A DNA stretch of 64,000 nucleotides, taken from contig JAZRFM010000016.1 of assembly GCA_045661345.1 (NCBI GenBank), positions 3,626 to 67,625 on the forward strand, given 5' to 3'. The notes under the pieces were generated by a model, which saw only the letters and a list, made by a program, of their open reading frames with translations, was not told the origin of the DNA and did not search any database. Position 1 is the stretch's first letter. Each line of letters starts with the position of its first letter. The stretch comes from Lachnospiraceae bacterium. GTDB lineage: Bacteria > Bacillota > Clostridia > Lachnospirales > Lachnospiraceae. This document shows positions 1 to 24,130 of this stretch, one piece after another. A program made the position numbers and the translations under genes.

Positions 1-2697
1 GCCCCGGAGCAGGAAGTGGAAGAGAATACCTTAAAGATCAACAAACTCCTGGATCATGCCGCAGATCTTCATCTTACACCCATACAAAAGAAAGATCTTG
101 AGATCCGGCGAAATCGGAATCTGAATTTTGGGCTGGTCTATGATCGGTCAAAGGCGGATGAAAGTAAAGAGATGGATGTTGTCAGGAATGATATTCGTGC
201 ATATGAAAAATTATTGTTTCAGGCTCCCAAAACAGAGGAAGAGCGACAGCAGAAGTTTGAAGAGGCAAGGGCACACTGCCAGAAAATGATAAATGATTGC
301 GATGCCTATCTGAACAGGGACAGGGGATGGTCTTTCCGTTTTTGGAAGCAGGCTCGTAATGAACATGTCTTAGCGGCAAAAGAACGGTTTCGAAAAGATT
401 ATAATACCTTCACAATACTCCTGGGGGCACATGATGAGATGAAAAAAGCTTTCCATGCTGATGACAGGCTGATCGATCTGATGAATGGGGAAGCGATCAA
501 GGAGCGTATGACGCTGAATACCCTGGAGCAGGTACAGAAGCAAGCTGAGGAACAAAAACTGATTCAGGATCAGCAGCAATATTTGAAACAGCATCAGGCA
601 GACTGGGCGAACGAACTCAAAAGTTTTAACAATGCAGAAAACGAAGCGGCACAGAAAAAGACCGGATATAAGTTGCTGAAGAAGATGGCAGATGTACTTC
701 TGAAAAGCAAGGAATTCGGCCCGGGTCTTGCGAAGAAATATGCGGGAGATGATATCGAGGGTATCGCCTTTTCGTATCAGATGGCCATTGCCGAACAGGG
801 TACGCAGAAAGATCAGGAGCTCCTTTACGATTTTAATGCGGAGGAGATCCGGCGCGTTCAGCAGGAAACTGTTCAGAACAAAGTGATCCGGGATGTGGTG
901 AGACCGCTCCTTCCGGGGGTTTTGGAAATGAGCTCGGTTTTGCGTGACCTCATCAAAGAAAAGGTGGACGAAAGCATTAGCCATGAAGAAAACAATAGGA
1001 TGGAAATAGAAAAATCCTTCCCGAAGGGGTTTCCCGTACAGGATTATGAGGATCCGAAGGTGCGGGAGAAGTTTCGTGCCCAGGTGAAGGAAAAGATGGG
1101 CCGTGGAATGAAGCTTTCGGATGCAGTGGAAGAGGCGTTAAAGGATCGTCGTCAGGCTTTGAGAGAATATGTCGAAAACGAAACCAGGAAAAATAGCCTG
1201 GTCCCGGTGATGTCGGATAAGGAGATCGCCGCCATGAATAAAGAAGGAAAGCTGTATTCCGGGATCAGCGAGGAGCAGTGGAAAAAGAGCGGAGGCGCGA
1301 CTTATAGGAAGATCATGACAACAGCTGAAGCAGAGAAACTGGTGGCAAAAAGCAATGGCTTCTTATGTGCCGTCAAGGTAAAGGTTGCACCCGGAGAGGA
1401 TCCTTTGCCCGGCGTGCGCGAGATCCGTCCGAGTCTTCCCGAAACGGCCGTGATCAATGGAGAGAACGTACCTCTTCGAAAGATTTATAATCTGCTGGTC
1501 AAAACCTATATCACGATGGCGACCAATCCGGATGGTTCGTTGAAGGAAGATACGACAGAACTTGTTGAGAAATTTGAAAATCTGGTCAGATTTATGCCTC
1601 AGGCGCAGGGAAACAAGGACGCGATCGCAGAGGGGAAGAGGATCTTAGAGCATACGTTTCTGCCCGTCATGCAAGAACTTCTGGAGGCGCAGTACGAAAA
1701 AGAAGGAAATATGGAGGCCAAGGAAAACGCGGCCGATGAGGTTGAGGGGATCTGCCGTGGTCTGATGACGGTCCTGACGAATATGAAGACCTATTTCATG
1801 GGCCCGGAGGTATCGCTGAATGCAAAAGCCGACTCTGTGAAAAACCTGTTGAATACGGATATGGCAAAATTATCCGCACATCTTGAGACGATCAAGCTGA
1901 AGATATGGGAGACCGACGAAGAAGGCAAGGAAAAGCTTGTGGAGAGAGTACCAACGAAAGAAGAGATAGAGAAGGCGATCGAAGCTACGTTCCATGATCT
2001 GGAACTGGCAAATCTGGCAATGAAACAGGTACGGGACTTGGATCCGAACGCACCGGATATTCCGATCCAAAATGCCTGTTCTGCAAACGGGATCTTCTAT
2101 TCATCGATGAGAATTCTGCTCTACGGGGGAGAGAAACAAGAAGCCCGTTATCTTTCCAAAGATTATGTGGTTCAACGTCCGGAGGATGTGCGCCGGTATC
2201 TGTTAAAGAACTTTGATCTGCTTGCGCCGGGTGCGGATGCCACACCGGCAGAATTGGTAAATTATCGAAGGCAGCTGGAAGAGATCTCTTTTCAAAAAGG
2301 GCAGACGTTTCAAAGCGGTATGGAAAACGAGGACATCAAAACTTTGTGCAAGGTCGCGAACGCCTTTGCCAAATATGTGTACCATGTCGCGGCAGACATC
2401 GTCAATAATGAAGAGGACGGACTCGTTACCATCGAAGGCTTTGCGGCAGAGACCGGCCAGTATCTGGTAGAACCCTTTACCATGCATGGCGCCATCGGGC
2501 AGTATCGGGGAGAGACGCATGAAGAAATAACCCATGACGTCAATGCAATCAAGAATACCGGCTTCAATACCTATTATAACTCGGACAATCCCTTTGCTTC
2601 CAATATAATAGATACATTGAAGATCTATATCAAGATGGAATTGCAGAGTTCTCCGGAGAAATATCAGAATAAGAGAAGGAATGGTTCACACCAGTGA
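1..2697 (+). CDS. Large paralog A, 5'-truncated by the window edge. It has the shared helical N-terminal domain of the four-member family and a unique ~650-aa C-terminal region with no kinase-like motif.
   Basis: Frame 1 is open from nt 1 (APEQEVEENTLKIN...). It aligns with residues ~55 onward of the 8293..11352 protein (VSEQQVAANTLKIN...), so the true start lies upstream of the window. Identity to B is roughly 60% by eye over the first ~170 aa (DLEIRRNRNL, KTEEERQQ, DRLIDLMN), then the sequences are unrelated. Confidence 0.85.
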   Translation, partial: APEQEVEENTLKINKLLDHAADLHLTPIQKKDLEIRRNRNLNFGLVYDRSKADESKEMDVVRNDIRAYEKLLFQAPKTEEERQQKFEEARAHCQKMINDCDAYLNRDRGWSFRFWKQARNEHVLAAKERFRKDYNTFTILLGAHDEMKKAFHADDRLIDLMNGEAIKERMTLNTLEQVQKQAEEQKLIQDQQQYLKQHQADWANELKSFNNAENEAAQKKTGYKLLKKMADVLLKSKEFGPGLAKKYAGDDIEGIAFSYQMAIAEQGTQKDQELLYDFNAEEIRRVQQETVQNKVIRDVVRPLLPGVLEMSSVLRDLIKEKVDESISHEENNRMEIEKSFPKGFPVQDYEDPKVREKFRAQVKEKMGRGMKLSDAVEEALKDRRQALREYVENETRKNSLVPVMSDKEIAAMNKEGKLYSGISEEQWKKSGGATYRKIMTTAEAEKLVAKSNGFLCAVKVKVAPGEDPLPGVREIRPSLPETAVINGENVPLRKIYNLLVKTYITMATNPDGSLKEDTTELVEKFENLVRFMPQAQGNKDAIAEGKRILEHTFLPVMQELLEAQYEKEGNMEAKENAADEVEGICRGLMTVLTNMKTYFMGPEVSLNAKADSVKNLLNTDMAKLSAHLETIKLKIWETDEEGKEKLVERVPTKEEIEKAIEATFHDLELANLAMKQVRDLDPNAPDIPIQNACSANGIFYSSMRILLYGGEKQEARYLSKDYVVQRPEDVRRYLLKNFDLLAPGADATPAELVNYRRQLEEISFQKGQTFQSGMENEDIKTLCKVANAFAKYVYHVAADIVNNEEDGLVTIEGFAAETGQYLVEPFTMHGAIGQYRGETHEEITHDVNAIKNTGFNTYYNSDNPFASNIIDTLKIYIKMELQSSPEKYQNKRRNGSHQ

Positions 2698-2814
2698 TCG
2701 GTTTCGCCTGAATAAAGGGAGGTACTCGCTTATGAAAACTACCTCAACTGCATCCAATGGATGCCTTACCTCGATTAGCGCATAGTCCCAATTTGACGTG
2801 CGCATTACATATCG

Positions 2815-2948: not shown

Positions 2949-3425
2949 ATGCTCCCTTTGCAGATCGTGATTCCGTCAGAACTTGAAGAGGAAGATTTCA
3001 AGACGCTCCGGCTAATGATGCCGAATGCTGATGAAAAAGTTTTTCATACATTTATGGAGGAGGCTCACGGATACACTGATAAAGCAGATCGCCAAGATGC
3101 CAGCGCAGTTCTGCACGTTATCACTGCTTCAAACAAGGAATTGTTTAAGAAGATATGGGAGGAACAGACTATGCAGGATTATTTAACAGAGCTTATGAGT
3201 GATAAATTTGAAGAGGCAATTCAAGGTGAACGAAAAACCATTATCGAGAATATGCTTCGGAAGGGCAAAACACCGGAGGAGATCAGCTCCCTTACCGGAC
3301 TTGCGCTGGAGCATGTCCAAAAGTTTTTTTTCGAAAAGTGTCCAAATATCAACCTGTCCGTTGATCGCAATTTTATGAGCACATTTCCAGGCTTGATGAG
3401 TCGTTTCGGTAAAAATTATTCTTGA
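2949..3425 (+). pseudogene. Probable C-terminal fragment of an Rpn/YhgA-like (PD-(D/E)XK 'putative transposase') protein
   Basis: The 158-aa ORF ends in ...ERKTIIENMLRKGKTPEEISSLTGLALEHVQKFF, which resembles the helix-turn-helix tail typical of Rpn-family proteins. No N-terminal nuclease half or convincing RBS is present. It sits in an AT-rich spacer next to a tRNA. Confidence 0.35.
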
Positions 3426-5748: not shown

Positions 5749-6753
5749 CTACAGCTGAATATCAATCCCTGCGGGGGCTGAGATATCCGCGCCCTGAGGG
5801 ACGACAAAAGACCCAGCCGCATATCCGCTGAAATCAGCCTGCATTCCCGGAATGGCGGCCCCTTTTTCCATCTGGTGCTTGATCGTCGCTTTCAGATAAT
5901 CCATATCCGCCTTGACGATCGCTTTCTGCTCCGCAGCACGGTGCTTTCGCTTCAGCTCTTCCAGTTCCTCCCTGCTCATGTGCGGATCCAGAACCTCCAT
6001 GTTTTCCAGCTGAGCCATTGCCTCTTCCAGCTGTTCCAGCTCCTCCTCCCCGAATTCCGAGATCATCTCGTTCAACTCGGTCATCGCCGCATCGGAAAGC
6101 GCCTCACTGCGCTCCTTTGCCTGCGAAGTGAGTTCCTCCAGCATTTCGCTGCGTTCCTCGAAGATCGCATCCTCTGTTTCGGTCACTTCCTCTTCCTCGG
6201 CTTCGACCAGGGAACTTTTAAGCGCAGCGGCTGCTTCCTCGGAAGCCTCCTGTTTTTCGTCACGCTTCCCTGTGTTTTCCACCAGCTCCTCCAGCTCAAG
6301 GTGATGCTTCTTTTTCCTCGCCACCAGCTCCATTCGTTTGGCGTGAGTCAGTTCCGCCTGCAGATCCTCCGGGTCTCCGTCTCCTGCCGAGACTTTTCGC
6401 TTCACTTCCAGCACCTTCCGCTTCGCGGCAATCACGGCCTGTCCGGCACCGAGGGCATTTTTTGCCCTCAGGATCTTCATTTCCACTTCCTTGAAGTTAT
6501 ATGTTCTTTTGGATTTGGCTTCCTTCTTTTTGTTCTTCGTTGATGTGCCCGTCAGCTCCAGAAATCCGTTTTTCTTGTTCTGAGGCATCCGGCTTTCCTC
6601 CATGCCCCGAATCAGCGCTCTGATCTTCTCTGTTTTTTCCGCCTTTTCTTCCGCTTTTCGGTCGGCGGAGGCGTTATTCCAGAAGGAGGCGAGAGCTGAA
6701 CTCTTCTGCAGGGAAGATGTGTAAGGTTTTTGAGAAAAAAATACCGTATTCAT
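5749..6753 (-). CDS. Hypothetical protein, highly charged K/E-rich, predicted coiled coil
   Basis: 334-aa ORF with a GGGGAGGG RBS. Second gene of a two-gene minus-strand operon, 15-nt gap from the upstream gene. No recognisable catalytic motif. Confidence 0.7.
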   Translation of the reverse strand: MNTVFFSQKPYTSSLQKSSALASFWNNASADRKAEEKAEKTEKIRALIRGMEESRMPQNKKNGFLELTGTSTKNKKKEAKSKRTYNFKEVEMKILRAKNALGAGQAVIAAKRKVLEVKRKVSAGDGDPEDLQAELTHAKRMELVARKKKHHLELEELVENTGKRDEKQEASEEAAAALKSSLVEAEEEEVTETEDAIFEERSEMLEELTSQAKERSEALSDAAMTELNEMISEFGEEELEQLEEAMAQLENMEVLDPHMSREELEELKRKHRAAEQKAIVKADMDYLKATIKHQMEKGAAIPGMQADFSGYAAGSFVVPQGADISAPAGIDIQL

Positions 6754-6768: not shown

Positions 6769-7647
6769 TCATCCTTTGAAATCGATATGGGTTCCCATCG
6801 TCATCTCCGCTTCCGCCAACACATGGTCGGAGGCATACTGATAGGAAAACTCCCGCACTTTGGAAAGCAAACCTTCCAGAGAATCCGACTCGAAGGTCTC
6901 GACCGTATCCTTCTTTTCTATCGGCTCTCCTTCTTTTTTCTCAGTTCCCTTTTCTGCTTTCCGCTGATCTCTGGTCTTTTGGATGCGATCCTCGCGCTCC
7001 TGCTTCTCGGCCCTCTTCTTTTCCTTTATTTTTTGTTCTTTCTTTTCGGTCGCTTTCTTTTCTATGCGCTTCTTCTGCAGATCGTTTGCCTTGTCCACAG
7101 CCGCGAAAAAGCTTTCCTTGCCGTTCGCATCCACCGATATCCCGAAATTCTTCACGTTTGCGCCGCTGCTGGCAAGGCTGTTCTTTGCCTCTGTCAGCTT
7201 CGCACCGGACATGGAAATGATCCCCTCGTACTTTTTACGGAAGGATTCATCCTGAGCCATGCGTTCGATCTTGTCTTCGTCGATCAAAACCACCTGTTTA
7301 TTTGCATTGCCATAGGAAGCTGCGTTCGCCTGTACCTGACTCTTCGTGTCCCTGCTGACGGTGATGAATTCCATATTATGAAACTTTGATTTCAGCTTAC
7401 TCAAATAATCCTTCGCCTGATCCGAAAGCTTCACATCCCCGATTGTATTCCCATATTCGGTTACTTTTGGTACAAGGGAATTCTTTGCGTTGACAGGAGA
7501 AAAACCCGTGTTTGCGGTTTTATTCTCCTTTACAGAGCCGGTCTGACCGCTTCTTTCCGCAGCCGCCCCTTTTGTATTCTCCGGCTGCCCCGGTCTGTAC
7601 GCCTGATTTGCCTGCTGATAAGCAGAAATGCCGTAAAAACCCGTCAT
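6769..7647 (-). CDS. Hypothetical protein with a K/E-rich central tract
   Basis: 292-aa ORF with a GGGAGG RBS. The N-terminal part (GNTIGDVKLSDQAKDYLSKLKSKFHNMEFITVS ... VVLIDEDKIERMAQDESFRKKYE) looks like a conserved Clostridia hypothetical family whose name I cannot give with certainty. Confidence 0.7.
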   Translation of the reverse strand: MTGFYGISAYQQANQAYRPGQPENTKGAAAERSGQTGSVKENKTANTGFSPVNAKNSLVPKVTEYGNTIGDVKLSDQAKDYLSKLKSKFHNMEFITVSRDTKSQVQANAASYGNANKQVVLIDEDKIERMAQDESFRKKYEGIISMSGAKLTEAKNSLASSGANVKNFGISVDANGKESFFAAVDKANDLQKKRIEKKATEKKEQKIKEKKRAEKQEREDRIQKTRDQRKAEKGTEKKEGEPIEKKDTVETFESDSLEGLLSKVREFSYQYASDHVLAEAEMTMGTHIDFKG

Positions 7648-7864: not shown

Positions 7865-8209
7865 AGGGCTTCTAGAGCAGAACAAGCGGTTTGAACTCAG
7901 TGATTTGAAAAGGGAGTGCATTATGACCGTCATATTTTCACGCGACACCTATTACGCCAGTGATGCGATCGGAGCTCAATGCTGTGCGTTATCAGGAATA
8001 ACTCACCCCGATTTTTTGTACTATTTGGAGAATCAACGCTCAGATTTTACACATTTCATTTACAAAAGCTTAAAATATGAGATAATTCAAAGAGATGCGG
8101 AAGGCTATCGACAATCAGATCCCGGAAAGGATTCATCAGAAATAAGAGGCGCTGTTTTGACAGCAGGACAGGGCTGAAACAAAGAAAAATGATATTTATT
8201 TAACAAATA

Positions 8210-8292: not shown

Positions 8293-11200
8293 ATGGATGA
8301 GATGAATAGAAGCCGCATGAGAAACAACGCTTTCGCAATGGACGAAAAACAGTCCCAGCTGCAGCGCGATCTGGGAATGATCACGCGTGAACGAATGAAT
8401 CCCCTCTTTATGGAGAATCAGACAAATCAGGTCGATTTCGGATTCGAGATGATCGAGTACGTTTCCGAACAGCAGGTGGCGGCAAATACATTAAAAATCA
8501 ACCGCCTTTTGGATAATGCCGGGGATCTTCATCTCTCGGCCGCACAACGGACAGATCTTGAGATCCGGAGAAACCGGAATCTGGATTTTGAGCTTGTCAA
8601 TGATCAGTCAAAGTCGAAAGACAGTGACGAAATGAAGACTGTCAAGAACGATATCCGGGAATTTGAAAGAATCCTGTATCAGTCTGCCAAAACGGAGGAA
8701 GAGCGTCAGCAGATGATTGCCGATGCGATGGCACACTGCCAGAGGACGATTGCCGATTGCAATACCTATCTGAAAAAGGGGAAATCTTTCTTTTTCTGGA
8801 GGCAAGGTCGTTATGATCAGGTCGCAGCGGCAAAAGAGCGGTTTCAAAAAGACTACGATACCTTCTTGAAGCTTTTTGATGCGTCTGATACGATGAAAAC
8901 AGGGTTCCGCGCCAATGACAGACTGATCGATCTGATGAATGTGGAAGCGGTCAATGAACGGGTAGCGCAGAAGGCTATGGAGGAAGCTGAAGAGGAGTAC
9001 CAGAGGGAGAAGTATCAGGAACAGAAGACAGAGGAAGAATACGAGTACGAAGAGGGGGATTCGTTCGAAGAGATTCCGGCGGAAGAACAGGGGCAATATC
9101 AGGAACAGAAGACAGAGGAAGAATACGAGTACGAAGAGGGGGACTCATTCGAGGAGATTCCGGCGGAAGAACAGGAGCTATATCAGGAGCAGAAAGAAGA
9201 GCCCTGGCGCGAATGGGGAGGAGAAGCAGTACCATTTGAGCAGGAGCAGCAGCAAGAAGAGCAGCAGCAAGAAGAACAGCAGCAAGAAGAACGGCAACAG
9301 CAGCAGAAAGAGGAGCCCTGGCGCGAATGGGGAGGAGAAGCAGTACCATTTGAGCAGGAGCAGAAAGAGGAGCCCTGGCGCGAATGGGGAGGAGAAGCGG
9401 TACCATTTGAGCAGGAGCAGCAGCAAGAAGAGCAGCAAGAAGAACAGCAGCAGGAGCAGAAAGAAGAGCCCTGGCGCGAATGGGGAGGAGAAGCAGTACC
9501 ATTTGAGCAGGAGCAGCAGCAGGAAGAGCAGCAGCAAGAAGAGCAGCAACAGCAACAGCAAGAAGAACAGCAGCAACAGCAGCAGCAAGAACAACAGCAG
9601 CAACAGGAATTATATGGAACGAAAGTGCTGGATCAGCTGAAGAATCTGGCGAAAACGCCGGAAATGCAAGCGATCGAAGCTGCGATTACAGATATTCAAA
9701 CCGAGATGGCGAAGGAGATGCCCGCCGTCCAGGTGATGCAGGATAAGGATCAAGAGAAGAAAGCAGAACGCCGCGCGCGCAAAGGCAAGGATGGTGTGGA
9801 TGCTCTTTGCGTGAAAATGGTCAGACTTTTTGGCGCATTGGATCAGCGCATTAATGATTGCCTGAAGAAGGAAAATGGTGCGGGATATGGAGGAAATGAC
9901 GCATTAAAGGATATTCTGGAGAACCTTCGGGAACAGACGAAGGTGGATCGTACCCAATTCAAGGATAAGGTTGTTCAATATCGTTCCTATATCGCAGGGA
10001 ATGCAGAAGAAGCCGCCAAAAATCATTCATGGTTTGATGCATGGAAATATGTCCGTAGCGTTTCTTATGATCTGGATGAGAAAGACAATGGATTGGAAAC
10101 CGTAACCGTGGGAGCAGGTGCTTCGATGATTACGTTAGTCAAGGATACAAAGAAGAAACAAAAGGTTTATTTCCGTCAGGGAGAGAACGCAGGAGGATGG
10201 AATTCGGAGGAGCTGGTGAAAAACTTTATGGAGTCTATCAAAGGAGAAATCCAGCTCGACGACGTCACGAAAGAGGATCTCAAGAAGGCATTTGGACATT
10301 TATTCCCCCAAAATGTACTGGACGAGGTCAAGGACGCATACAGGAAGGCGAATGAAGCAAAGCTAGAACGTGCGATAGACAAATTGGACGAATTCAGAGT
10401 AAGCCAATATCGGAGTAGTGATGTCAGGAAAAATATAGATGGGTTTGTTCAGACCGCTGCCTGTCCGGGAATACTCAAGGAGATGTACCGGAATGCAACC
10501 GATAAAGTCAGAACAGAGATAGGAAAAGCCTTTACCTTATTTGCGAAGAAGCATTTCCAGTGGAGTTTTTCAGTTGGCTCTGCGAGAATCGATCCGGAGC
10601 AAAGTCTCACAGACCGAAATGTTGCGACAAGCAGGTTGGCCGGCTTGCTCGGGCTTAGTTCCATGATCAGCGATTCCAGAACAGCCGTGATCAAAAAGGA
10701 TGGAAAAGAGGTCATGGGAAATGTGATGGAGGACTCAAGGGGGAAAACAACATCTCAAATGAGGGGTGACTGGACCTACTCTGATAAGGCGATCGGCCAA
10801 GCGTATACGTTGCAGGTCTTTGATATGATATGCGGGCAGATTGACCGGCATCACGGGAACTATCATATCATCGAAAAGAACAGGAATGTGAACAGCATCA
10901 AGGCAATCGACAACGATATGTCCTTCGGAAAGCTGACGTGGGATACCATTGCAGAAGGGCACGAGAATATCTCGCCGCTTACGGAAAGTCATATGCGGGC
11001 AATGCCAATCGCGGTAATCAACCAGATACTTTCGCTGGATAAAAAGATTTTGCAGGAGGCGCTTGGTGATGTCCTGGACAGTGACAGCATGAATTATTTG
11101 CTGGATCGACTTGGAGGTGTACAAAGAACCATCATGGAATATGCCGAAAATCCCGAGTCCGGACTTCAGATAAGCGCGGACGGCAAGGCAGCCGAGTTCA

Positions 11201-11352
11201 CCGGAGAAGATAAGGACGACACGCTGCGGATGCTGAAAGCGGTCAGAAAAAACAGGGATGCCCGCACCTTAATCTGGTGGGATAACCTTACGGAAAAAAC
11301 CCTTGATGAGAAAATAGAGGCGAGAAAAAAGGAATTGGCGCAGAAAAAATAA
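8293..11352 (+). CDS. Large paralog B: family N-terminal domain, repeat/E-Q-rich linker, and a C-terminal PI3/PI4-kinase/HipA-like atypical kinase domain
   Basis: AAGGAGG RBS. The N-domain matches A. Gly-rich GAGASM (10111-10128), KVYFRQGE, catalytic-loop-like GQIDRHHGN (DRHHGN at 10843-10860), and metal-loop-like AIDNDMSFG (IDND at 10906-10917). Confidence 0.85.
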   Translation: MDEMNRSRMRNNAFAMDEKQSQLQRDLGMITRERMNPLFMENQTNQVDFGFEMIEYVSEQQVAANTLKINRLLDNAGDLHLSAAQRTDLEIRRNRNLDFELVNDQSKSKDSDEMKTVKNDIREFERILYQSAKTEEERQQMIADAMAHCQRTIADCNTYLKKGKSFFFWRQGRYDQVAAAKERFQKDYDTFLKLFDASDTMKTGFRANDRLIDLMNVEAVNERVAQKAMEEAEEEYQREKYQEQKTEEEYEYEEGDSFEEIPAEEQGQYQEQKTEEEYEYEEGDSFEEIPAEEQELYQEQKEEPWREWGGEAVPFEQEQQQEEQQQEEQQQEERQQQQKEEPWREWGGEAVPFEQEQKEEPWREWGGEAVPFEQEQQQEEQQEEQQQEQKEEPWREWGGEAVPFEQEQQQEEQQQEEQQQQQQEEQQQQQQQEQQQQQELYGTKVLDQLKNLAKTPEMQAIEAAITDIQTEMAKEMPAVQVMQDKDQEKKAERRARKGKDGVDALCVKMVRLFGALDQRINDCLKKENGAGYGGNDALKDILENLREQTKVDRTQFKDKVVQYRSYIAGNAEEAAKNHSWFDAWKYVRSVSYDLDEKDNGLETVTVGAGASMITLVKDTKKKQKVYFRQGENAGGWNSEELVKNFMESIKGEIQLDDVTKEDLKKAFGHLFPQNVLDEVKDAYRKANEAKLERAIDKLDEFRVSQYRSSDVRKNIDGFVQTAACPGILKEMYRNATDKVRTEIGKAFTLFAKKHFQWSFSVGSARIDPEQSLTDRNVATSRLAGLLGLSSMISDSRTAVIKKDGKEVMGNVMEDSRGKTTSQMRGDWTYSDKAIGQAYTLQVFDMICGQIDRHHGNYHIIEKNRNVNSIKAIDNDMSFGKLTWDTIAEGHENISPLTESHMRAMPIAVINQILSLDKKILQEALGDVLDSDSMNYLLDRLGGVQRTIMEYAENPESGLQISADGKAAEFTGEDKDDTLRMLKAVRKNRDARTLIWWDNLTEKTLDEKIEARKKELAQKK
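9013..9180 (+). repeat. Two tandem in-frame 84-bp repeats, each encoding YQEQKTEEEYEYEEGDSFEEIPAEEQ..
   Basis: Units start at 9013 and 9097; a third partial unit starts at 9181. A few substitutions separate the copies. Confidence 0.9.
9187..9606 (+). repeat. Four copies of a ~57-bp in-frame unit (KEEPWREWGGEAVPFEQEQ), separated by variable CAG/CAA/GAA (Q/E) tracts and ending in a poly-Q run
   Basis: The CCCTGGCGCGAATGGGG cores start at 9202, 9316, 9373 and 9469, giving spacings of 114, 57 and 96 bp. Confidence 0.9.
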
Positions 11353-13544: not shown

Positions 13545-13668
13545 GTGAGGAGGAGCAGATCCCCCTGCGGGAGGATCTGTCAGAGAAAGATTTACATTTG
13601 TCTGAAAAAAAGGTATTATTTGGTTGATTATCCAAAATTTTCTAAAAAAGAGGCGTAGAACTTCCGAG

Positions 13669-15849
13669 ATGAAGAAAAAATCCAGGATCCTTCCAACAGG
13701 ATTGGCCGGAAAACTGATTCGATTTGTGGTGGTTTTTGTACTAAGCCTGGGGCTTGCGTTTCTCCTGATCTCCCATATACAGCTCAACACCCTCAACAGA
13801 ATGGTGGAGCAGGAGGAAGAGAAACAGGCGGTTCTGGTACAGGAAAAATCCATGCAGTCTGTATCGGAGCTGACGGAGGAAAGTCTCTCCGAAATGATCG
13901 CCTGGGCGGCGGACAAGACGGACGACGAGTTTTTTATTCTGCAGCATGATATCCTGGTACTCCGGCAGCAGGTGGAGGACGTGCTCCGTCATCCCGAAAG
14001 ATATGAGACCCTGTTGGTGGAGCCCCCGAAAAAAGAAAATACCGGCAAATACGTCCTCCAGCTGGACGGACCGGAAGAATATGAAGAGTTTTCGCCGGAA
14101 ACGATGGAAACCCTGGGGAAGTGTGCGAATCTGGGCCCGATGATGGCCGAGATGGTGCGGGGAAACGAAGGCTTCACGCTGGATAATGTGATTGCGACGC
14201 CGGATGGCGTCTGTATCGGCATGGACAATCTGTCCGGCGGAAAGTTTGATGAAAATGGAGAGGTCATTCCCTATGACGCAAGAGAGTTTCCCTGGTTTCA
14301 GGATGCCATCAGGGAGAATACCGTTGTGTTTTCTGTTACACACAGTCATTTTTATGACCTGAACGAGGTCATCTACAGTGTACCGGTATACGTGGACGGA
14401 AAGCTGGGTGCGGTGCTGGAGGGGTCTTCCCGCATGGATATTCTGGAGCGTAAGCTGACGGAACGGAATATCGGTAAGGGCGGGTTTTCCATTCTGGTTA
14501 CCGATAACGGGCAGCTGGTCTGCTCTCCCCGGACAGACGGTGAGCTGAAAATGAGAGAGGATGTGACGGAGGATATCCGTCCCGGGATCAATGGCGGTCT
14601 GGCAGAGGTCATCAACAAAGGACTTTCCGGTGAGACCGGCGTAACGCTGACGCAGGTGGACGGCAATTCCTATTATACTGCCTATGCACCTCTTAATACG
14701 ATTGGCTGGACCCAGCTCGCTTTTGTCTCCGAGGAGGAACTGCAAGCGCCGGCAAAGAATCTGGTTCAGGAGATGGAAGCGTCGACGGACGATATGCTCT
14801 CCACCCTGCGGCATGAATTCGCGAATTCGGCCGTCCTGACAGTGTTCATTCTGGCAGGCATCATCCTCTTTTCCATCCTGATTGTCGGTTCCCTTGCGAA
14901 AAAACGGGTAGAGCCCATCAAGCATATGACGATCAGGATCCGTAACTTCTTTACTGATGAAGCTATGGTCTTTGAAATGGAGGATATCTACAGAACCGGA
15001 GACGAGATTGAGACACTGGCGCGGTCATTTGAGATATTATCCGAGGAACTGAAGGAATACGTGGCGGAAAACATACGGATCTCTGCGGAAAAGGAGAGGA
15101 TCGGTGCCGAGCTGAATGTCGCCAAAAAGATTCAGGAGGATATGCTGCCGAATCTCTTCCCGATTTTCCCGGACAGGAAAGAGTTCGATATCTATGCTTC
15201 CATGAAGCCGGCCAAGGAAGTGGGGGGAGATTTCTATGATATCTTCCTGGTCGATGACGATCATCTTTGTGTGGTTGTGGGAGACGTCTCCGGGAAAGGA
15301 GTCCCTGCGGCGCTTTTCATGGTGATTTCCAAGACAATGCTGAAAAACCGTGCGCAGGCAGGCGGTAAGCCCTCCGAGATTCTGTACGATGTCAACAACA
15401 GCCTGCACGAGGGAAATAAAGAAAAAATGTTCGTGACAGTCTGGCTGGGGATCCTTACCATTTCCACCGGGGAGGTGGTATGGGCCAGTGCGGGACATGA
15501 ATATCCCGTCATCGGCCGGGCAGAGGGTGACTATGAACTGTACGAAGATAAACACGGATTTGTTCTGGGCGGCATGAAAGGGATGCCCTATCGTGACAAT
15601 GAGCTGGTGTTGAATCAGGGAGATGCGTTGTTCCTCTATACGGATGGTTTGCCGGAGGCCACCAATGCGAAGGGGCAGCGGCTGGAGGAAAAAGGAATGC
15701 TTGCGGCATTGAACGCGCACAGAACGGATACGACAGAACAATTGCTGAAAAATGTTGCGGAAGAAGTGAACCGGTTTGTCGGGGATGCGCCGCAGTTTGA
15801 TGACCTGACAATGTTGGTATTAACATACGGGGAATCTGTCACGGAATAA
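13669..15849 (+). CDS. Tandem paralog of the preceding gene with the same Cache-HAMP-PP2C architecture
   Basis: ATG at 13669 (MKKKSRILPTGLAGKLIRF) aligns with the start of the upstream paralog. All PP2C motifs are conserved. The sensor domains are visibly more diverged than the phosphatase domains. Confidence 0.88.
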   Translation: MKKKSRILPTGLAGKLIRFVVVFVLSLGLAFLLISHIQLNTLNRMVEQEEEKQAVLVQEKSMQSVSELTEESLSEMIAWAADKTDDEFFILQHDILVLRQQVEDVLRHPERYETLLVEPPKKENTGKYVLQLDGPEEYEEFSPETMETLGKCANLGPMMAEMVRGNEGFTLDNVIATPDGVCIGMDNLSGGKFDENGEVIPYDAREFPWFQDAIRENTVVFSVTHSHFYDLNEVIYSVPVYVDGKLGAVLEGSSRMDILERKLTERNIGKGGFSILVTDNGQLVCSPRTDGELKMREDVTEDIRPGINGGLAEVINKGLSGETGVTLTQVDGNSYYTAYAPLNTIGWTQLAFVSEEELQAPAKNLVQEMEASTDDMLSTLRHEFANSAVLTVFILAGIILFSILIVGSLAKKRVEPIKHMTIRIRNFFTDEAMVFEMEDIYRTGDEIETLARSFEILSEELKEYVAENIRISAEKERIGAELNVAKKIQEDMLPNLFPIFPDRKEFDIYASMKPAKEVGGDFYDIFLVDDDHLCVVVGDVSGKGVPAALFMVISKTMLKNRAQAGGKPSEILYDVNNSLHEGNKEKMFVTVWLGILTISTGEVVWASAGHEYPVIGRAEGDYELYEDKHGFVLGGMKGMPYRDNELVLNQGDALFLYTDGLPEATNAKGQRLEEKGMLAALNAHRTDTTEQLLKNVAEEVNRFVGDAPQFDDLTMLVLTYGESVTE

Positions 15850-15890: not shown

Positions 15891-16313
15891 ATGAAAGAAA
15901 TAAAGGTAGCGGCAGATCGCGGCAATATGCAAAAGGTGCTGGATTTTGTGGAGGATGAGATCAAACAGAATCCTGATTTCAGCCACACGGATTTACTCCA
16001 GATTCATATGGTCATTGATGAGATCTTTGGAAACATTGCATCCTACGCTTACGATGACAGCGGGGGCGATGTGAAGGTCATGATGGATTTCGACAAAGCA
16101 CAGGGAAATATGACACTTGTGTTTTCGGATGAGGGGAAGCCGTATAATCCCCTGCAGAATGAGGATCCGGATGTGACGCTGCCGGCAGATAAACGCAGAG
16201 TCGGCGGTCTGGGGATTTTTATGGTAAAAAATACAATGGATGAAATAGCATACGAAAACAAAGACGGCAGGAACATATTGACAATGAAAAAACAAGGAGG
16301 TAACCATGTTTAA
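15891..16313 (+). CDS. Anti-sigma-factor-type serine kinase (RsbW/SpoIIAB-like, HATPase_c)
   Basis: 140 aa. N-box EIFGNIASYAY, G1 DEGKPYNP, G2 GGLGIFMVKN. Confidence 0.85.
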   Translation: MKEIKVAADRGNMQKVLDFVEDEIKQNPDFSHTDLLQIHMVIDEIFGNIASYAYDDSGGDVKVMMDFDKAQGNMTLVFSDEGKPYNPLQNEDPDVTLPADKRRVGGLGIFMVKNTMDEIAYENKDGRNILTMKKQGGNHV

Positions 16314-16608
16314 CGTAAAAACAGAGATTTCAGGCGAATCAATTCTCATTTCACTGGAGGGGCTGCTGGATTCCCAGACTGCACCGGAGCTGACAGCTGT
16401 GCTGGACGAAAATCTGGGCAAGGTGAACAACATCCGGTTTGACTTTGCAAAACTTGAATATCTGACGAGCGCGGGACTGCGGGCAATTCTGGTGGCACAG
16501 CAGGAAATGAACGACAAGAACGGTGTCATGACCGTAACAAACATCTCGGACGATATTATGAAGATTTTTGAGATGACGGGGTTTGCTGATGTATTGACGA
16601 TTGTGTGA
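16306..16608 (+). CDS. STAS-domain anti-sigma-factor antagonist (RsbV/SpoIIAA-like)
   Basis: 100 aa. The phospho-acceptor context FAKLEYLTSAGLRAIL is present. Its start overlaps the kinase gene by 8 nt. Confidence 0.88.
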   Translation: MFNVKTEISGESILISLEGLLDSQTAPELTAVLDENLGKVNNIRFDFAKLEYLTSAGLRAILVAQQEMNDKNGVMTVTNISDDIMKIFEMTGFADVLTIV

Positions 16609-18819: not shown

Positions 18820-21630
18820 ATGGATGATAGCTTGTTCTTTAACCGACAAAAACGTAGAAATGGGGAACATGTTGATCTGGCGTCAAGGATGAGAAGCAAT
18901 TTTCTTGACATGACTGAGTCGAAAATGCTCACCTACGCGCAGGCTCAGGAACAACAGTTCCGGGAAGCCAATCATGGATTTATGGAGATGGTTCCGAATG
19001 AATTTTATATGGAGGGCCGGACGAAGCAAAACGTGCTCATGATTGACGAGCTTCTGGATAGCGCCGATACCCTCCACCTCACCGCGACGCAGAAGGAAGA
19101 TCTGCGTATCCGGCGAAATCGTGTCAAAGACTTTGAGCTACTGAACCATCATACAAAAGATGACAGCAAAGAGATGAGATTGTTAAAGGAAGAGATTCGT
19201 GAGTACGATAGGTTATTGTCCAGAAAACCGGCATCACTCGAGGATCTGCAGCAATTTTGCGCGGAGATAGAAAGAAAGTGTGATGATGCGATTGCGCGTT
19301 GTGACAAATATCTGGGGAGGGGAAAGCCTCTGTCATTCTGGAAAAAGAACAGAAATGAACGGTATCATATGGTAGAAGAGGCGAAGGCGCGTTATTTGAA
19401 GGAAAAAAATGTCATAAAGACTCTTTCCCAGCTGACGGATGTCGACCAGTATTTACAAGCCGATGATACGATGCTGGATCTGATGAACATTGAAAAGATC
19501 AATGATCGGTTGGTGGAGCGTGAGATAGAACAAAGACGCAGGCAGTGGGAAGAGCAGCAGCAGCGGGAACGGGAAGAAGCAGAACGCCGGGCAGAAGCAG
19601 AGCGCCAGGCAGAAGAAGAGCGCCACCGTCGGGAACAAGAAGAGCAGCAGCGGGAACGGGAAGAAGCAGAACGTCGGGCAGAAGCAGAGCGCCGGGCAGA
19701 AGAAGAACGCCACCGTCAGGAAGAAGAGCGTCAGAACCAGCAGCAGAACGAGCAGAACCAGCAGCAAGAAGAGCAGCAAGAAGAGCAGCAGCAAGAAGAG
19801 CAGCAGCAACAGCAGCAGCAACAGCAGCAACAGCAGCAACAGGAACAGCAGGAATTATATGGAACGAAAGTGCTGGATCAGCTGAAGAATCTGGAGAAAA
19901 CGCCGGAAATGCAAGCGATCGAAACTGCGATTACAGATATTCAAACCGAGATGGCGAAGGAGATGCCCGCTGTCCAGGTGATGCAGGATAAGGATCAAGA
20001 GAAGAAAGCAGAACGCCGCGCGCGCAAAGGCAAGGATGGTGTGGATGCTCTTTGCGTGAAAATGGTCAGACTTTTTGGTGCATTGGATCAGCGCATTAAT
20101 GATTGGCTGAAAAAGAATAATGGTGCGGGAAATGGGGAAAATAACGCATTAAAGGCTATTTTGGAGAACCTTCGGGAACAGACGAAAGTGGATCGTACCC
20201 AATTCAAGGATAAGGTTGTTCAATATCGTTCCTATATCGCGGGGAATGCAGAAGAGGCCGCCAAAAATCATTCATGGTTTGATGCATGGAAATATGTCCG
20301 TAGCGTTTCTTATGATCTGGATCAAAACAACAATGGATTGGAAACCAAAACCATGGGAGCCGGTGCTTCGATGATTACGTTAATCAAGGATACAAAGAAG
20401 AAACAAAAGGTTTATTTCCGTCTGGGAGAGAACGCAGGAGGATTTAATGCGGAAGAACTGGTGAAAACCTTTATGGAGTCTGTCAAAGGAGAAGCCCAGC
20501 TCGACGACGCCACGAAGGAGGATCTCAGGAAGGCGTTTGTTAGTTTGTTTCCCCAACATATACTGAATGTTATCAAGAGGGGGTTCGAACGGCAGGATGA
20601 AGGTTTAATTCGTGAAGGGGTAGACGCACTGGATGCAAAGGGAGTGAGCAATTATCGGAGTAGTGATGTCAGGAAAAATATAGATGAGTATGCTCAGACC
20701 GATACCTGTCCGGACATACTCAAACAGGCGTACCAGCGTGCAAACGACGAAGTCAAAACAGAGATAGGAAAAGTGTTTACCTTATTTGCGAAAAAATATT
20801 TCCAGTGGAGTTTTTCAGTTGGTGCCGCGAAAATTGATCCGGAACAAAGTCTTACAGATCGAAATGTTGCTACAAGCAGGTTGGCCGGCTTGCTCGGGCT
20901 TAGTTCCATGATCAGCGATTCCAGAACAGCGGTGATCAAAAAGGATGGAAAAGAGGTCATGGGAAATGTGATGGAGGACTCAAGGGGAAAAGTGATAGAT
21001 CGAGTGAGGGGTAACTGGACCTACTCTGATAAGGCGATCGGGCAGGTGTATACATTGCAGGTCTTTGATATGATATGCGGACAGATTGACCGGCACCGCG
21101 GGAATTACCATGTCATTGAAAAGAACCAGAAGGTGAACAGCATCAAGGCAATCGACAACGATATGTCCTTCGGAAGGCTGACGTGGGATACGATTGCACC
21201 AGGGTACGAAAACCTTCCGCCGCTTACGGAATGCCATGTGCGTGCAATGCCGATCGCGGTAATCAACCAGATACTTTCTCTGGATGAAAAGATTTTGCAG
21301 GAGGCGCTTGGTGATGTCCTGGACAGTACTAGCATTGATTATTTGGTTGACCGACTTGCAGGTGTACAAAGAACCATCATAGAATATGCCGAAAAGGATG
21401 AGTCCGGACTTACGATAAGCGCAGACGGCAAGTCAGCCGAGTTTACGGGAGAAGATAAGGATGACACGCTGCGGATGCTGAAAGCGGTGAAGAAACAAAG
21501 CGGACTCCCCTATCATATTAGGCTCGATGGAGGAGAAACTATCTTTGATAATAATCAGATCTGGTGGGATAACCTTACGGAACAAACGCTTGATGAGAAG
21601 ATAGAGGCGAGAAGAGGGGAGTTGGCTTAG
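18820..21630 (+). CDS. Large paralog C: D-type N-terminal domain, E/R- and Q-rich repeat linker, and a kinase-like C-terminal domain nearly identical to that of B
   Basis: AGGAGG RBS. GAGASM and KVYFRLGE are present. DRHRGN at 21088-21105 and IDND at 21151-21162. Confidence 0.85.
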   Translation: MDDSLFFNRQKRRNGEHVDLASRMRSNFLDMTESKMLTYAQAQEQQFREANHGFMEMVPNEFYMEGRTKQNVLMIDELLDSADTLHLTATQKEDLRIRRNRVKDFELLNHHTKDDSKEMRLLKEEIREYDRLLSRKPASLEDLQQFCAEIERKCDDAIARCDKYLGRGKPLSFWKKNRNERYHMVEEAKARYLKEKNVIKTLSQLTDVDQYLQADDTMLDLMNIEKINDRLVEREIEQRRRQWEEQQQREREEAERRAEAERQAEEERHRREQEEQQREREEAERRAEAERRAEEERHRQEEERQNQQQNEQNQQQEEQQEEQQQEEQQQQQQQQQQQQQQEQQELYGTKVLDQLKNLEKTPEMQAIETAITDIQTEMAKEMPAVQVMQDKDQEKKAERRARKGKDGVDALCVKMVRLFGALDQRINDWLKKNNGAGNGENNALKAILENLREQTKVDRTQFKDKVVQYRSYIAGNAEEAAKNHSWFDAWKYVRSVSYDLDQNNNGLETKTMGAGASMITLIKDTKKKQKVYFRLGENAGGFNAEELVKTFMESVKGEAQLDDATKEDLRKAFVSLFPQHILNVIKRGFERQDEGLIREGVDALDAKGVSNYRSSDVRKNIDEYAQTDTCPDILKQAYQRANDEVKTEIGKVFTLFAKKYFQWSFSVGAAKIDPEQSLTDRNVATSRLAGLLGLSSMISDSRTAVIKKDGKEVMGNVMEDSRGKVIDRVRGNWTYSDKAIGQVYTLQVFDMICGQIDRHRGNYHVIEKNQKVNSIKAIDNDMSFGRLTWDTIAPGYENLPPLTECHVRAMPIAVINQILSLDEKILQEALGDVLDSTSIDYLVDRLAGVQRTIIEYAEKDESGLTISADGKSAEFTGEDKDDTLRMLKAVKKQSGLPYHIRLDGGETIFDNNQIWWDNLTEQTLDEKIEARRGELA
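19551..19855 (+). repeat. Two tandem 87-bp in-frame units (REREEAERRAEAER.AEEERHR...) followed by a CAG/CAA/GAA tract encoding poly-Q/E
   Basis: CGGGAACGGG cores at 19564 and 19651. The poly-Q run ends just before CAGGAATTATATGG at 19849. Confidence 0.88.
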
Positions 21631-21665
21631 AATAATCCCGCATGAAAAGACGCCCCGTAATACCG

Positions 21666-21700
21666 GCGCCCGCAGCGAGCTTCGCTGCGGGCGCTTTCCT
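21666..21700 (+). terminator. Terminator-like GC-rich hairpin between paralogs C and D
   Basis: Perfect 12-bp stem gcgcccgcagcg / cgctgcgggcgc with a 5-nt loop, followed only by a short tttcct. Confidence 0.55.
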
Positions 21701-21757
21701 GCCGGGAAAAAGAAGGAACCCATGGTAAAATCCTTCTGATCACAAGAGGAAAAAAGG

Positions 21758-24130
21758 ATGGATGAGAACAGGATCTTCAGCAAAAAGAACAGCGAAGATG
21801 CAGATAATCTGGACAGAATGCTGGATAATTTTGCAGAGATTACTGCGTCGAAAATGAAAACCTACGTCCAGCTTCAGCAGGAACAACAGTCGACGGATCA
21901 TGTGCAGGGAGAGGTGCTCATGATTGAGGAGCTCATGGATCATGCCGAGAACCTCCAGCTTACCGGGGCACAGAAGGAGGATCTGAGTATCCGGAGAAAC
22001 CGGATCAAGGATTTTGAACTTCTGAACGACAGGACAAAAGAAGACAGTGACAAAATGACACAGGTAAAGGAAGCGATCCGTCAATACGACCTGTTGTTGT
22101 CTATGACCCCGAAATCCCGGGAGGAGTACCAGACATTTTGTATGCTGGCGGAGAAGAAATGTGATGATGTGATCCGCAGCTGCAATGAATACCTGGGAAG
22201 CGGAAAGTCCCTGAAATTCTGGAAAGGGGAACGGAATGACCGCCTGCAAAAGGTGGGAGAAGCGAAAGAACGTTTTTTAAGGGAAAAAGATGTTTTCACG
22301 TCCCTCGCGGAGTTGACGGACGTTGAGAAGTTTTTGCACAACGGCGATACATTGCTGGATCTCCTGAACCTCGAAGCCATCAATGAACGGCTGACGTCGT
22401 ATGAAAAGAAAGAACCGGAAGCACGGACCGGTGTGGAGACATCGGAAATAAAAGCTGTCACGAAGGCTATTACGAATATCCAAAAAGAGATGGCAAAACC
22501 CATGCCCGGGGACATTGTGACACAGGATCAGACGCCCGAGCAGATGGCTCCGTTCTTTGAGAAGTTGTATCAGAGCATTGAGGATTGCCTGAAAAAGGAT
22601 CACGGTGAGGGATATGGAAGGAATGATGCACTCAAAGAAGTTTTGGGGAGGCTGCAGAACCGGACGAAGGAAGACCGTGCCGGGTTTTCGGATAAGGTGA
22701 CGCAGTATCGCTCCTGGCTTCGTGAGAATGAGGAAGAGGCACCCGGGGAGCACAGGTGGCGGGATGCATGGAACTATGCCCGCAGCGTGACTTATGATCT
22801 GGATGCAAAAAACAACGGACTGGAAGTCAAAAAAACAAAGACAGATGAGGATACAATCATCATCCGGAATACAAGGAAGCGGGAAACGGTTTGCTTTCGC
22901 GAGGAAGAAAATGTGGGCGGAGCTGATGCAGTCAAACTGGTTGAGAACTTTCTGCGATCCATTGACAAGGACATCGGCTGTGAAGAAGACGTGAAGGCAG
23001 CTCTTCGGAAAATGTTTGAATCAATTCTGACCCAGCAAGTGATGGATGACGGGGCGGCCATGGACCGTTTGCAGTGGGAGCTGCACACTTTTCGAAAGCA
23101 GGGAAGATACGAACAGAACATGGAAGCTTTTCTCCGGACAGATCTGTGCACGCCGGAGGTGAGAAGTCTGGTGAACAAGACCGACACGTCAAGGGAAACC
23201 AGGGAAGCCATGGGGAAAGCGCTTTCCTTATTTGCGCAAAAGATTTTTCAGTGGAGTTATGCGACAAATTCCGCGAAGATTGCACCGGATCAAAGCCTCT
23301 CAAATCGGAGGGTTGCCACCGGCAGGATGGCTGATCTTCTCGGGATCGGTTCCATGGTCAGTGACGCCAGAACCGCTGTGATTCAAAAGGATGGGGAAAA
23401 GATCAGGGGTACTGTGACGGAGAATTCCCGGGGGAAAGATATCCGTAGTCTGGACAAGGGCTGGCGTTATGCCGATCAGGCGATGGCAGAGTCCTTTACC
23501 TTACAGGTTTTTGATATGCTGTGCGGACAGATTGACAGACAGTGGGGAAGCTTCCTTGTCACCGTAAAAAAAGAGGATGGACAAACGGTGGTGATGGGCA
23601 TCAAAGCCACCGGCAACGATATGGCCTTCGGGAGCCTCGGCTGGAAACAGATCAAAAACGGACACGAAAGGATCAGCCCGCTTACCGCGTATCATGTGCG
23701 CGCGATGCCGATTGATGTGATCAACCGGATCCTTGCGCTGAAACCGGCGTTTTTGGAGGATATGCTTGGAGATCTGCTGGATCATCCTTACATTGAAGGC
23801 ACTCAGGACCGGTTGAAGGGGATCCAGGAAGCGATCAGTCAATACGCAGAGGAACCGGATGCGGGATTTGTCATAAAAGCAAACGGGGAGGCTGCATTTA
23901 CGGGGGATGATGCGGATGACACCTTACGGATGCTGAAAGCAATAAAGCAGCTCCGGGAGGATCTCAATGCAGATGAAGACCACATCAAAAGGATCGACGG
24001 GAAAAAAGTGGTGGTAGAATATAACGCCCACACATGGAGATCCCTGATTCTTTTTAAACACCTTCCCGAGGGAGAACTGGATCGGCGGATAGAGGCGAAA
24101 AAAAAAGAGCTGGCAAATAATCCTGCATGA
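21758..24130 (+). CDS. Large paralog D: family N-terminal domain, no repeat linker, and a degenerate kinase-like domain (probable pseudokinase)
   Basis: GAGGAAAAAAGG RBS. Catalytic-loop position reads GQIDRQWGS (23534-23551) and metal-loop position reads KATGNDMAFG (TGND at 23609-23620). The Gly-rich loop is replaced by KKTKTDEDT. Confidence 0.85.
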   Translation: MDENRIFSKKNSEDADNLDRMLDNFAEITASKMKTYVQLQQEQQSTDHVQGEVLMIEELMDHAENLQLTGAQKEDLSIRRNRIKDFELLNDRTKEDSDKMTQVKEAIRQYDLLLSMTPKSREEYQTFCMLAEKKCDDVIRSCNEYLGSGKSLKFWKGERNDRLQKVGEAKERFLREKDVFTSLAELTDVEKFLHNGDTLLDLLNLEAINERLTSYEKKEPEARTGVETSEIKAVTKAITNIQKEMAKPMPGDIVTQDQTPEQMAPFFEKLYQSIEDCLKKDHGEGYGRNDALKEVLGRLQNRTKEDRAGFSDKVTQYRSWLRENEEEAPGEHRWRDAWNYARSVTYDLDAKNNGLEVKKTKTDEDTIIIRNTRKRETVCFREEENVGGADAVKLVENFLRSIDKDIGCEEDVKAALRKMFESILTQQVMDDGAAMDRLQWELHTFRKQGRYEQNMEAFLRTDLCTPEVRSLVNKTDTSRETREAMGKALSLFAQKIFQWSYATNSAKIAPDQSLSNRRVATGRMADLLGIGSMVSDARTAVIQKDGEKIRGTVTENSRGKDIRSLDKGWRYADQAMAESFTLQVFDMLCGQIDRQWGSFLVTVKKEDGQTVVMGIKATGNDMAFGSLGWKQIKNGHERISPLTAYHVRAMPIDVINRILALKPAFLEDMLGDLLDHPYIEGTQDRLKGIQEAISQYAEEPDAGFVIKANGEAAFTGDDADDTLRMLKAIKQLREDLNADEDHIKRIDGKKVVVEYNAHTWRSLILFKHLPEGELDRRIEAKKKELANNPA

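Follow-up and report, generated by a model that had tools for sequence, protein, structure and literature searches.

A Lachnospiraceae family of cytoplasmic proteins with a constant helical N-terminal domain and interchangeable kinase-like modules, encoded beside GNAT and partner-switch genes

The DNA analysed here (the window, 64,000 nucleotides, nt) comes from contig JAZRFM010000016.1 of a rumen-type Lachnospiraceae bacterium (assembly GCA_045661345.1). It encodes four paralogous proteins, A to D, which share an N-terminal domain (the N-domain) and are listed with their parts and the genes around them in Table 1. All four were found, on the plus strand, where an earlier reading of the window (the original prediction) had placed them. 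The reading frame of A is open to base 1, its N-terminus being cut by the window edge; judged by its full-length relative P0012, which is 96% identical and has 953 residues, the window misses about 55 residues at the N-terminus of A. The proteins follow a three-part plan, consisting of a constant helical N-terminal domain, a disordered linker that is rich in E and Q and encoded by repeats, and an interchangeable C-terminal module. None of A–D has a transmembrane-like or signal-like segment (the maximum 19-residue Kyte-Doolittle mean is about 1.1), as had been predicted. A–D belong to a multigene family of modular, cytoplasmic proteins that has so far been seen only in uncultured Lachnospiraceae.

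Table 1. Positions of the four paralogues, their parts and the associated genes in the window
Feature	Position (nt)	Strand	Remarks and evidence
Paralogue A	1–2697 (open reading frame 1/16–2697)	+	A/B-type N-domain at nt 1–507, then unrelated C-terminal module of ~720 residues
DUF6033 protein	6769–7647	−	Pfam PF19498, E 1e-69; divergent, upstream of B
Paralogue B	8293–11352	+	1019 residues
B, leader helix and N-domain	8293–8961	+	AlphaFold2 model, alignment
B, acidic, Q-rich tandem-repeat linker	about 8962–9654	+	Tandem repeats at 9006–9606
B, helical pre-kinase segment and atypical kinase (predicted)	9655–11349	+	AlphaFold2 model, Foldseek, weak Fam20 matches
Cache-PP2C sensor phosphatases (dCache_1 + SpoIIE/PP2C)	11370–13544, 13624–15849	+	Pfam SpoIIE, E 1e-46 and 1e-48
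RsbW-like anti-sigma-type kinase	15891–16313	+	HATPase_c_2, E 4e-20
STAS anti-sigma antagonist	16306–16608	+	ant_ant_sig, 62.7 bits (cut-off 53.45); frame overlaps RsbW-like gene
GNAT300, two-lobed GNAT acetyltransferase of ~300 residues	16705–17631	+	Acetyltransf_1, 36.9 bits (cut-off 20.7); RGDGIG motif
p284, degenerate GNAT300 paralogue of 284 residues	17643–18497	+	hhalign against GNAT300 profile
Paralogue C	18820–21630	+	936 residues; C/D-type N-domain core at nt 19030–19509
C, repeat linker	19510–19899	+	Tandem repeats at 19556–19851
C, kinase module (predicted)	19900–21627	+	Tail 82% identical to that of B
Paralogue D	21758–24130	+	790 residues; C/D-type N-domain core at nt 21911–22390, very short linker
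D, kinase-like module with substituted catalytic residues		+	Sequence, dN/dS

The N-terminal regions of A–D match each other with BLASTP E values of 1e-27 to 1e-60, so their similarity is far beyond chance, and the motifs IRRNR, C..YL and FW are invariant in their alignment. In the N-domain core, A and B are 61.6% identical, C and D 57.5%, and members of different subtypes 43–46%. The original prediction of two subtypes was thus accurate within each of them (~60% for A and B, half or more for C and D) and too low between them (35–40%). Its shared helical domain and the motifs given for it are likewise upheld, but not the length of ~170 residues: the conserved unit is about 220 residues long, with a predicted N-terminal helix and a disordered loop ahead of the helical bundle. 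The C-terminal modules group as had been described. Those of B and C are kinase-like and closely related (Table 1), that of D is a degenerate copy (46–49% identical to B or C), and the tail of A is unrelated, giving no BLASTP match to the tails of B, C or D. The ratio of nonsynonymous to synonymous substitution rates (dN/dS) is 0.2–0.5 throughout, which indicates that all modules, including those of D, are under constraint.

When 1.84 billion cluster representatives were searched exhaustively with a profile, 67 N-domain proteins were recovered, 38 of them at E < 1e-10, ranging from 119 to 2467 residues in length. In nearly all strong matches the N-domain begins within about 20 residues of the N-terminus. 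Two sequences are conserved across the family: GDSxxM, and CxxYLxRGKSFFFWRxxRY, in which Cys-x2-Tyr-Leu is followed by the basic-aromatic stretch RGKSFFFWRxxRY. Lysine K118 (numbering of B) hardly varies and is a candidate position for acetylation or acylation. Every member for which a source name was recovered is called “hypothetical protein [Lachnospiraceae bacterium]”, and a scan of genome contigs using narrow patterns found a single species representative, RUG12461, which is a Lachnospiraceae metagenome-assembled genome.

The AlphaFold2 model of the N-domain of B (predicted local distance difference test, pLDDT, 84.7; predicted template modelling score, pTM, 0.80) consists of a compact bundle of helices preceded by a long N-terminal helix and a disordered loop. 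Comparison of 23 diverse members with Pfam gave no consistent family, and there was no consistent match in NCBIfam, PHROGs, PADLOC or PDB sequences. The best fold matches of the model had E values of 0.7 in PDB and 0.6 in BFVD (none below 0.5). Foldseek also gave a weak match to the N-terminal helical part of the glucosyltransferase domain of TpeL (probability 0.72, E 5.6). The original prediction had assigned the proteins to no named family, and these searches agree with it. We conclude that the N-domain is a previously undescribed all-helical domain, absent from Pfam.

For the tail of B, several comparisons point to the same group of kinases. B matches the Pfam family Fam20C (PF06702) at E 4.6e-4, with a score of 20.4 bits that is below the gathering threshold of 26.8, and a precomputed PF06702 match exists for three homologues. 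When a profile of 14 tails was compared with PDB sequences, the best matches were Fam20A, Fam20C and Fam20B (E 0.025–0.1), over the stretch containing FDxxCGQIDRHxxN and IDNDMSFG; the motifs FDxxxGxxDRHxxN and (I/L)DN...FG align with all three. The AlphaFold2 model of B residues 455–1019 (pLDDT 88.8, pTM 0.84) has as its best Foldseek matches the type II phosphatidylinositol 4-kinases (PI4KII) beta and alpha, with E values of 4e-5 to 2.6e-4 and a probability of 1.0, and further down the list are Legionella MavQ, CotH (E 0.15) and CtkA. The catalytic loop and metal motif read DRHHGN and IDND in B, and DRHRGN and IDND in C, so that the catalytic Asp, His and Asn and the Asp of IDN are kept. The tail of B and C is thus an atypical protein-kinase-like domain of the PI4KII/Fam20/CotH type, bilobal in its modelled fold and placed behind a helical segment. 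It differs from those kinases in belonging to a bacterial, cytoplasmic family, in the helical segment of ~130 residues ahead of it, in its fusion to the N-domain, and in that D, P0002–P0004 and P0015 carry substituted metal-binding or catalytic residues. The basic-aromatic loop of the N-domain, the PI4KII-like fold and the weak TpeL match hint at action at a membrane, which we offer as a lead only.

In D, DRQWGS and GND take the place of DRH(H/R)GN and IDND, and its tail is on these substitutions probably a pseudokinase. It is still constrained, as the dN/dS between the kinase modules of C and D is 0.35. The relatives of D in two other loci, L019 and L020, are about 79% identical to it in nucleotide sequence. 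Separately, among P0002–P0004, P0013 and P0015, which are related to B and D, several apparent orthologues retain DRH but read NNE where the metal-binding IDND would stand, so that catalysis seems often to have been lost or rewired in the family. The ~720-residue tail of A has no match in Pfam or PDB. Its only other occurrences are in P0012, P0076 (42% identical, behind a different N-terminus) and, weakly, P0063, the first two being all that a homologue search returned. Most other tails in the N-domain family have no Pfam match; a few are ABC1 atypical kinases, carried by distant relatives, or the same PI4KII/Fam20-like module.

Heads and tails have not been inherited together. Identity matrices for the N-domain and the kinase, compared across 20 family members, are incongruent. 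P0007, P0009 and P0010 have N-domains that are 99–100% identical and kinases that are only 50–56% identical; the corresponding values are 98% and 52% for P0005 and P0011, and 98% and 49% for P0008 and P0014. The reverse is found for P0007 and P0008 (58% in the N-domain, 93% in the kinase) and for P0013 and P0003 (44% and 95%). Within the window, the DNA of B and C gives no blastn match over the N-domain, and then becomes 86% identical, with an abrupt onset at B nt 1213 inside the Q-rich linker, up to the end of the gene. Along this shared 3′ stretch the identity is a patchwork of 60–99%, as expected from repeated gene conversion.

The same exchange can be seen between genomes. P0007 and P0009 occupy the equivalent position in two of them (L019 and L020), each being the first gene after GNAT300 and p284. 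In the aligned DNA the GNAT genes are 83–97% identical, the N-domain 98–100%, the linker and kinase 53–82%, and the next gene, which is D-like, 95–100%. The synonymous divergence (dS) is 0.008 over the N-terminal 224 codons, rises to 0.98 in the kinase region and is 0.29–0.45 in the flanking GNAT genes. The difference between the two loci is an allelic replacement of the tail cassette, and the downstream gene was not replaced with it. We conclude that recombination at or near the linker reassorts heads and tails, both between paralogues within a locus and allelically between genomes, and that the repeat linkers act as the recombination joints. Domain-level shuffling had been proposed in the original prediction; the incongruent matrices, the breakpoint in the linker and the replacement between L019 and L020 make a stronger case for it than its reader could see.

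We note also that both the N-domain segment (L019 9916–10665, compared with L020) and the downstream D-like gene are far more alike between the two loci than are the flanking GNAT genes. Given the dS of the heads against that of the GNAT genes, the heads too must have been recently exchanged or converted, and not only the tails. Simple tandem duplication without shuffling was considered and rejected, on account of the incongruent matrices and the cassette replacement.

A constant N-terminal region, variable C-terminal modules, arrays of paralogues and recombination of cassettes with allelic displacement of tails are also found in polymorphic toxins such as LXG proteins of type VII secretion systems (LXG/T7SS), Rhs proteins and contact-dependent inhibition (CDI) systems. 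The family could accordingly consist of toxins or effectors that are exported by an unrecognised route, with the N-domain serving for trafficking and the tails as toxins against competitors or host cells. Kinase effectors do occur among secreted bacterial toxins, MavQ and CtkA are among the fold matches, and the weak N-domain match is to a part of TpeL. The neighbourhoods bear directly on this reading. Neighbouring genes were annotated at the level of Pfam (Pfam or precomputed Pfam) in the window and in 10 of 19 related loci (L003–L010, L019 and L020), and with nine locus-derived profiles in the other nine (among L001, L002 and L011–L018); eight of the related loci came from a metagenome scan. 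With this coverage, no secretion or immunity genes were found in the window or in any of the 19 related loci. The N-domain matches no LXG, PT-domain or tape-measure family, nor any other recognised trafficking family such as Rhs or filamentous haemagglutinin, in Pfam (23 members, and the full proteins at E ≤ 1), NCBIfam, PHROGs, PDB sequences or the PDB and BFVD folds, and the proteins lack signal peptides.

Nor is there an immunity gene that covaries with the tail. The genes next downstream in the window are a PP2C gene for B, D for C and dtd for D, with no small immunity-like gene among them, and in L019 and L020 the next gene is nearly identical despite the swapped tail. The genes that are tightly linked to the family encode cytoplasmic signalling proteins, namely GNATs and a partner switch, rather than a secretion apparatus. 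The original prediction had seen no fit to the layout of polymorphic toxins, and this holds for the related loci as well. These failed membership tests weigh against a secreted polymorphic toxin, which is a disfavoured reading that we consider improbable.

The original prediction missed the context of the paralogues: the genes between them belong to the same conserved system. Six genes lie between B and C, encoding two Cache-SpoIIE (PP2C) membrane phosphatases, an RsbW-like kinase, a STAS protein, GNAT300 and p284. The two phosphatases are tandem copies, 72% identical to each other, and each has two transmembrane-like segments flanking its Cache domain. Cache-PP2C phosphatases are also present in L002, L003, L005, L009, L011, L017, L019 and L020; in L002, L019 and L020 the region retrieved contains one copy, compared with two in the window. 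RsbW-like and STAS genes are found together in L002, L007, L011, L019 and L020, and STAS additionally in L003.

PP2C phosphatase, HATPase_c_2 kinase and STAS antagonist are therefore encoded together in the window as a partner-switching module. Partner switches of the RsbU/RsbV/RsbW type include those of Bacillus subtilis sigma-B, Bordetella BtrUVW and Vibrio SypE/SypA. The module here shares with them the joint encoding of a SpoIIE-type PP2C, an HATPase_c_2 kinase and a STAS antagonist. It differs in that its phosphatases have extracytoplasmic Cache sensors, in that it is conserved together with N-domain proteins, GNAT300 and p284, possibly as its output, and in that no sigma factor was found among the locus open reading frames scanned against Pfam and NCBIfam (all but a small open reading frame at 7905–8177).

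The second element of the neighbourhood is the pair of GNAT genes. The p284 family matches the GNAT300 profile over its full length (hhalign probability 99.2%, E 2e-19), while the RGxGIG acetyl-CoA motif is missing. p284 itself has no match in Pfam, NCBIfam or PDB, and its profile gives only noise-level GNAT matches in PDB. The family was found in at least 11 loci. Sequence comparison thus suggests that GNAT300 and p284 may form a heterodimer of an active and an inactive GNAT.

Twenty loci were scanned with local hidden Markov models, and the contexts examined include those of distant N-domain proteins with 25–45% identity, which repeat the gene set of the window. GNAT300 directly adjoins an N-domain gene in 17 gene pairs from 15 loci (L003–L011 and L013–L018). 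It lies upstream in nearly all pairs, where the two genes either overlap or are separated by a few to about 230 nt; in L001 and in the window, p284 is the only gene between them. L007 has a compact version of the locus, containing STAS, RsbW, GNAT300, an N-domain protein, p284 and DUF6033, and in L010, L011 and L013 the GNAT300/N-domain pair is tandemly duplicated. The divergence of GNAT300 is correlated with that of the N-domain (r = 0.75), and nearest neighbours are concordant in 15 of the 17 pairs; where one genome has two pairs, as in L011 and L013, these have different yet concordant nearest relatives. The correlated divergence and the concordant neighbours indicate that GNAT300 and the N-domain evolve as a unit.

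A gene pair of this kind is known from hlyC and hlyA, in which a toxin-activating acyltransferase (TAAT) is encoded with its substrate. As there, the gene for an acyltransferase of GNAT fold lies immediately upstream of, and is inherited with, the gene for a large protein. We treat the likeness as a lead only: there are no RTX repeats and no type I secretion system here, and both membership of GNAT300 in the TAAT family and acylation by it would be conjecture.

DUF6033, for which our literature search found no paper, is also encoded next to N-domain genes in L002 and L007. The operon conserved around the family thus comprises the cognate GNAT, its degenerate paralogue, Cache-PP2C, the RsbW-like kinase, STAS and DUF6033. 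A scan for promoters and terminators gave nothing above shuffled expectation, and the limits of the operon are therefore judged from intergenic distances alone. Further genes in related loci encode calpain-like peptidases (Peptidase_C2), transglutaminases (Transglut_core) and a MoxR ATPase (bpMoxR). Downstream of D are housekeeping genes, including dtd and glnA. With the coverage given above, no phage genes were seen in the window or related loci, and there were no PHROG matches; an origin from a phage or an integrative and conjugative element was rejected on these grounds and because the flanking genes are housekeeping ones.

The transglutaminases, the presence of CotH among the structural matches, the repetitive, charged linkers and the absence of signal peptides would all suit enzymes of spore-coat or envelope assembly, that is, CotH-like coat kinases made in the mother cell, with the N-terminal domain targeting them to the coat. 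The CotH match is however far weaker than that to PI4KII (E 0.15 compared with 4e-5), Pfam gives no CotH match, sporulation genes are not linked to the locus, and the operon is coupled to a partner switch for extracellular signals rather than to a developmental programme. Of the explanations considered, this is the one to which we give least credence, and we think it very improbable.

We propose instead that the N-domain serves as a handle by which interchangeable enzymes are coupled to a cognate GNAT, under the control of the partner switch; our confidence in this falls a little short of even. An extracellular signal, sensed by the Cache-PP2C proteins, would flip the STAS/RsbW partner switch, and the switch would in turn govern the activity of the N-domain-tagged kinases within the cell, or their localisation, possibly at the membrane. 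The cognate GNAT, together with its inactive paralogue, would dock onto each family member via the N-domain, possibly acylating or acetylating it. Swapping of the tail would then change what is phosphorylated and keep the regulatory connection. In its full form, the proposal is of an undescribed Lachnospiraceae system in which GNAT300 and its inactive paralogue recognise and modify the handle on interchangeable kinases and other enzymes, the whole set being the output of a sigma-less partner switch for extracellular signals, and in which strains exchange tail cassettes to retarget it. This fuller version is put forward tentatively, and we hold it to be doubtful as a whole.

The handle invites comparison with the effector-associated adaptor domains of NTPase-centred conflict systems, which were reportedly described by Kaur, Burroughs, Iyer and Aravind in 2020. 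In both cases a small N-terminal helical module is common to several different enzymatic effectors in one locus. The N-domain is larger (~170–220 residues), occurs here with no STAND/NTPase core, and has no similarity to Death-like folds detectable with Foldseek.

Several points count against a handle under partner-switch control. In the window only C is near GNAT300, from which p284 separates it; neither B nor D has a GNAT of its own, and the region upstream of A is outside the window. Adjacency and co-divergence of GNAT and N-domain could arise from co-duplication alone, and the link from the N-domain to GNAT, RsbW and STAS is drawn from gene order and sequence comparison. Some related loci show no partner-switch genes, though many of their contigs are short. 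The substrate of the kinases may be a protein, a lipid or a small molecule. The family is known only from metagenome-assembled genomes. Finally, such strong polymorphism of the tails would be expected of a conflict system more than of housekeeping signalling.

This last point leads to the main rival, in which the locus serves in biological conflict, be it against phage or otherwise. Sensing and regulation would then fall to the partner switch or the GNAT, and the N-domain-tagged kinases would be interchangeable effectors, diversified by an arms race. Consistent with this, tails are mosaic and replaced as cassettes against near-identical heads, the copy number in the paralogue array varies between genomes, and related loci contain genes for Peptidase_C2, Transglut_core and bpMoxR; in addition, PADLOC gave a weak match of the catalytic loop of B to the candidate PDC-M03A (E 2.7e-4). 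There is however no match to any established defence family, and the locus has a stable chromosomal position beside dtd and glnA in three genomes. Values of dN/dS below 0.5 give no sign of positive selection at the level of whole domains, and the Cache sensors are extracytoplasmic, which is unusual for the sensing of phage. We therefore consider a conflict system unlikely, although it is the strongest of the alternatives to the regulatory handle. Overall, the evidence points to a regulatory or conflict system rather than to a secreted toxin; whether the locus is a distinct, undescribed system of either kind is something we would affirm only with considerable doubt.

The atypical kinases, GNATs and partner switch that make up the locus belong to known kinds. 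What appear to be new are the N-domain family, its obligate association with a GNAT, and the clean exchange of cytoplasmic kinases as cassettes in the absence of secretion or immunity genes. None of the N-domain family, the GNAT pairing and the cassette swapping is described in the literature that we searched (on DUF6033, on partner switching with GNAT proteins, and on bacterial Fam20/CotH/PI4KII-like kinases). The findings add a domain family that is absent from Pfam, with its conserved gene neighbourhood, to what is known of the abundant and poorly studied Lachnospiraceae of gut and rumen. The outputs of sigma-less partner switches are largely unknown, and the locus offers a concrete candidate for one. 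The findings also show the constant-head, swappable-tail logic of polymorphic toxins at work in cytoplasmic atypical kinases without secretion or immunity genes. The pairing of GNAT and N-domain is open to direct tests of interaction, lysine modification and kinase substrate.

Some further features of the window and of the related loci were noted. DUF6033 is followed by a gene for a highly charged protein of 334 residues that has no family match (5749–6753, minus strand). An open reading frame of 158 residues directly after A (2949–3425) weakly matches phrog_5416 (E 0.0065) and has no relatives in the other loci. Beyond D, about 3.4 kb (24795–28270) contain overlapping long open reading frames on both strands, of 875 and 283 residues on the minus strand and of 365, 328 and 192 residues on the plus strand. 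The three plus-strand frames have no Pfam match (the minus-strand ones were outside the scan), the GC skew is near zero, and this region gives no blastn match of at least 200 nt to L019 or L020, which are otherwise syntenic. A pair of unannotated genes, encoding ~230 and ~350 residues and not present in the window, recurs in L005 (3423–5193), L008 (3793–5534) and L002 (4707–6436), and has BLAST similarity to the region ahead of PP2C in the phosphatase of L003 (residues 110–266). A short C-terminal end rich in N, Q and G (...NNPA, ...GNQQA or ...NNQA) is found in D (24100–24127), P0001, P0005, P0008–P0011, P0014 and P0017, and not in B or C; it is possibly a degron or a sorting tag.

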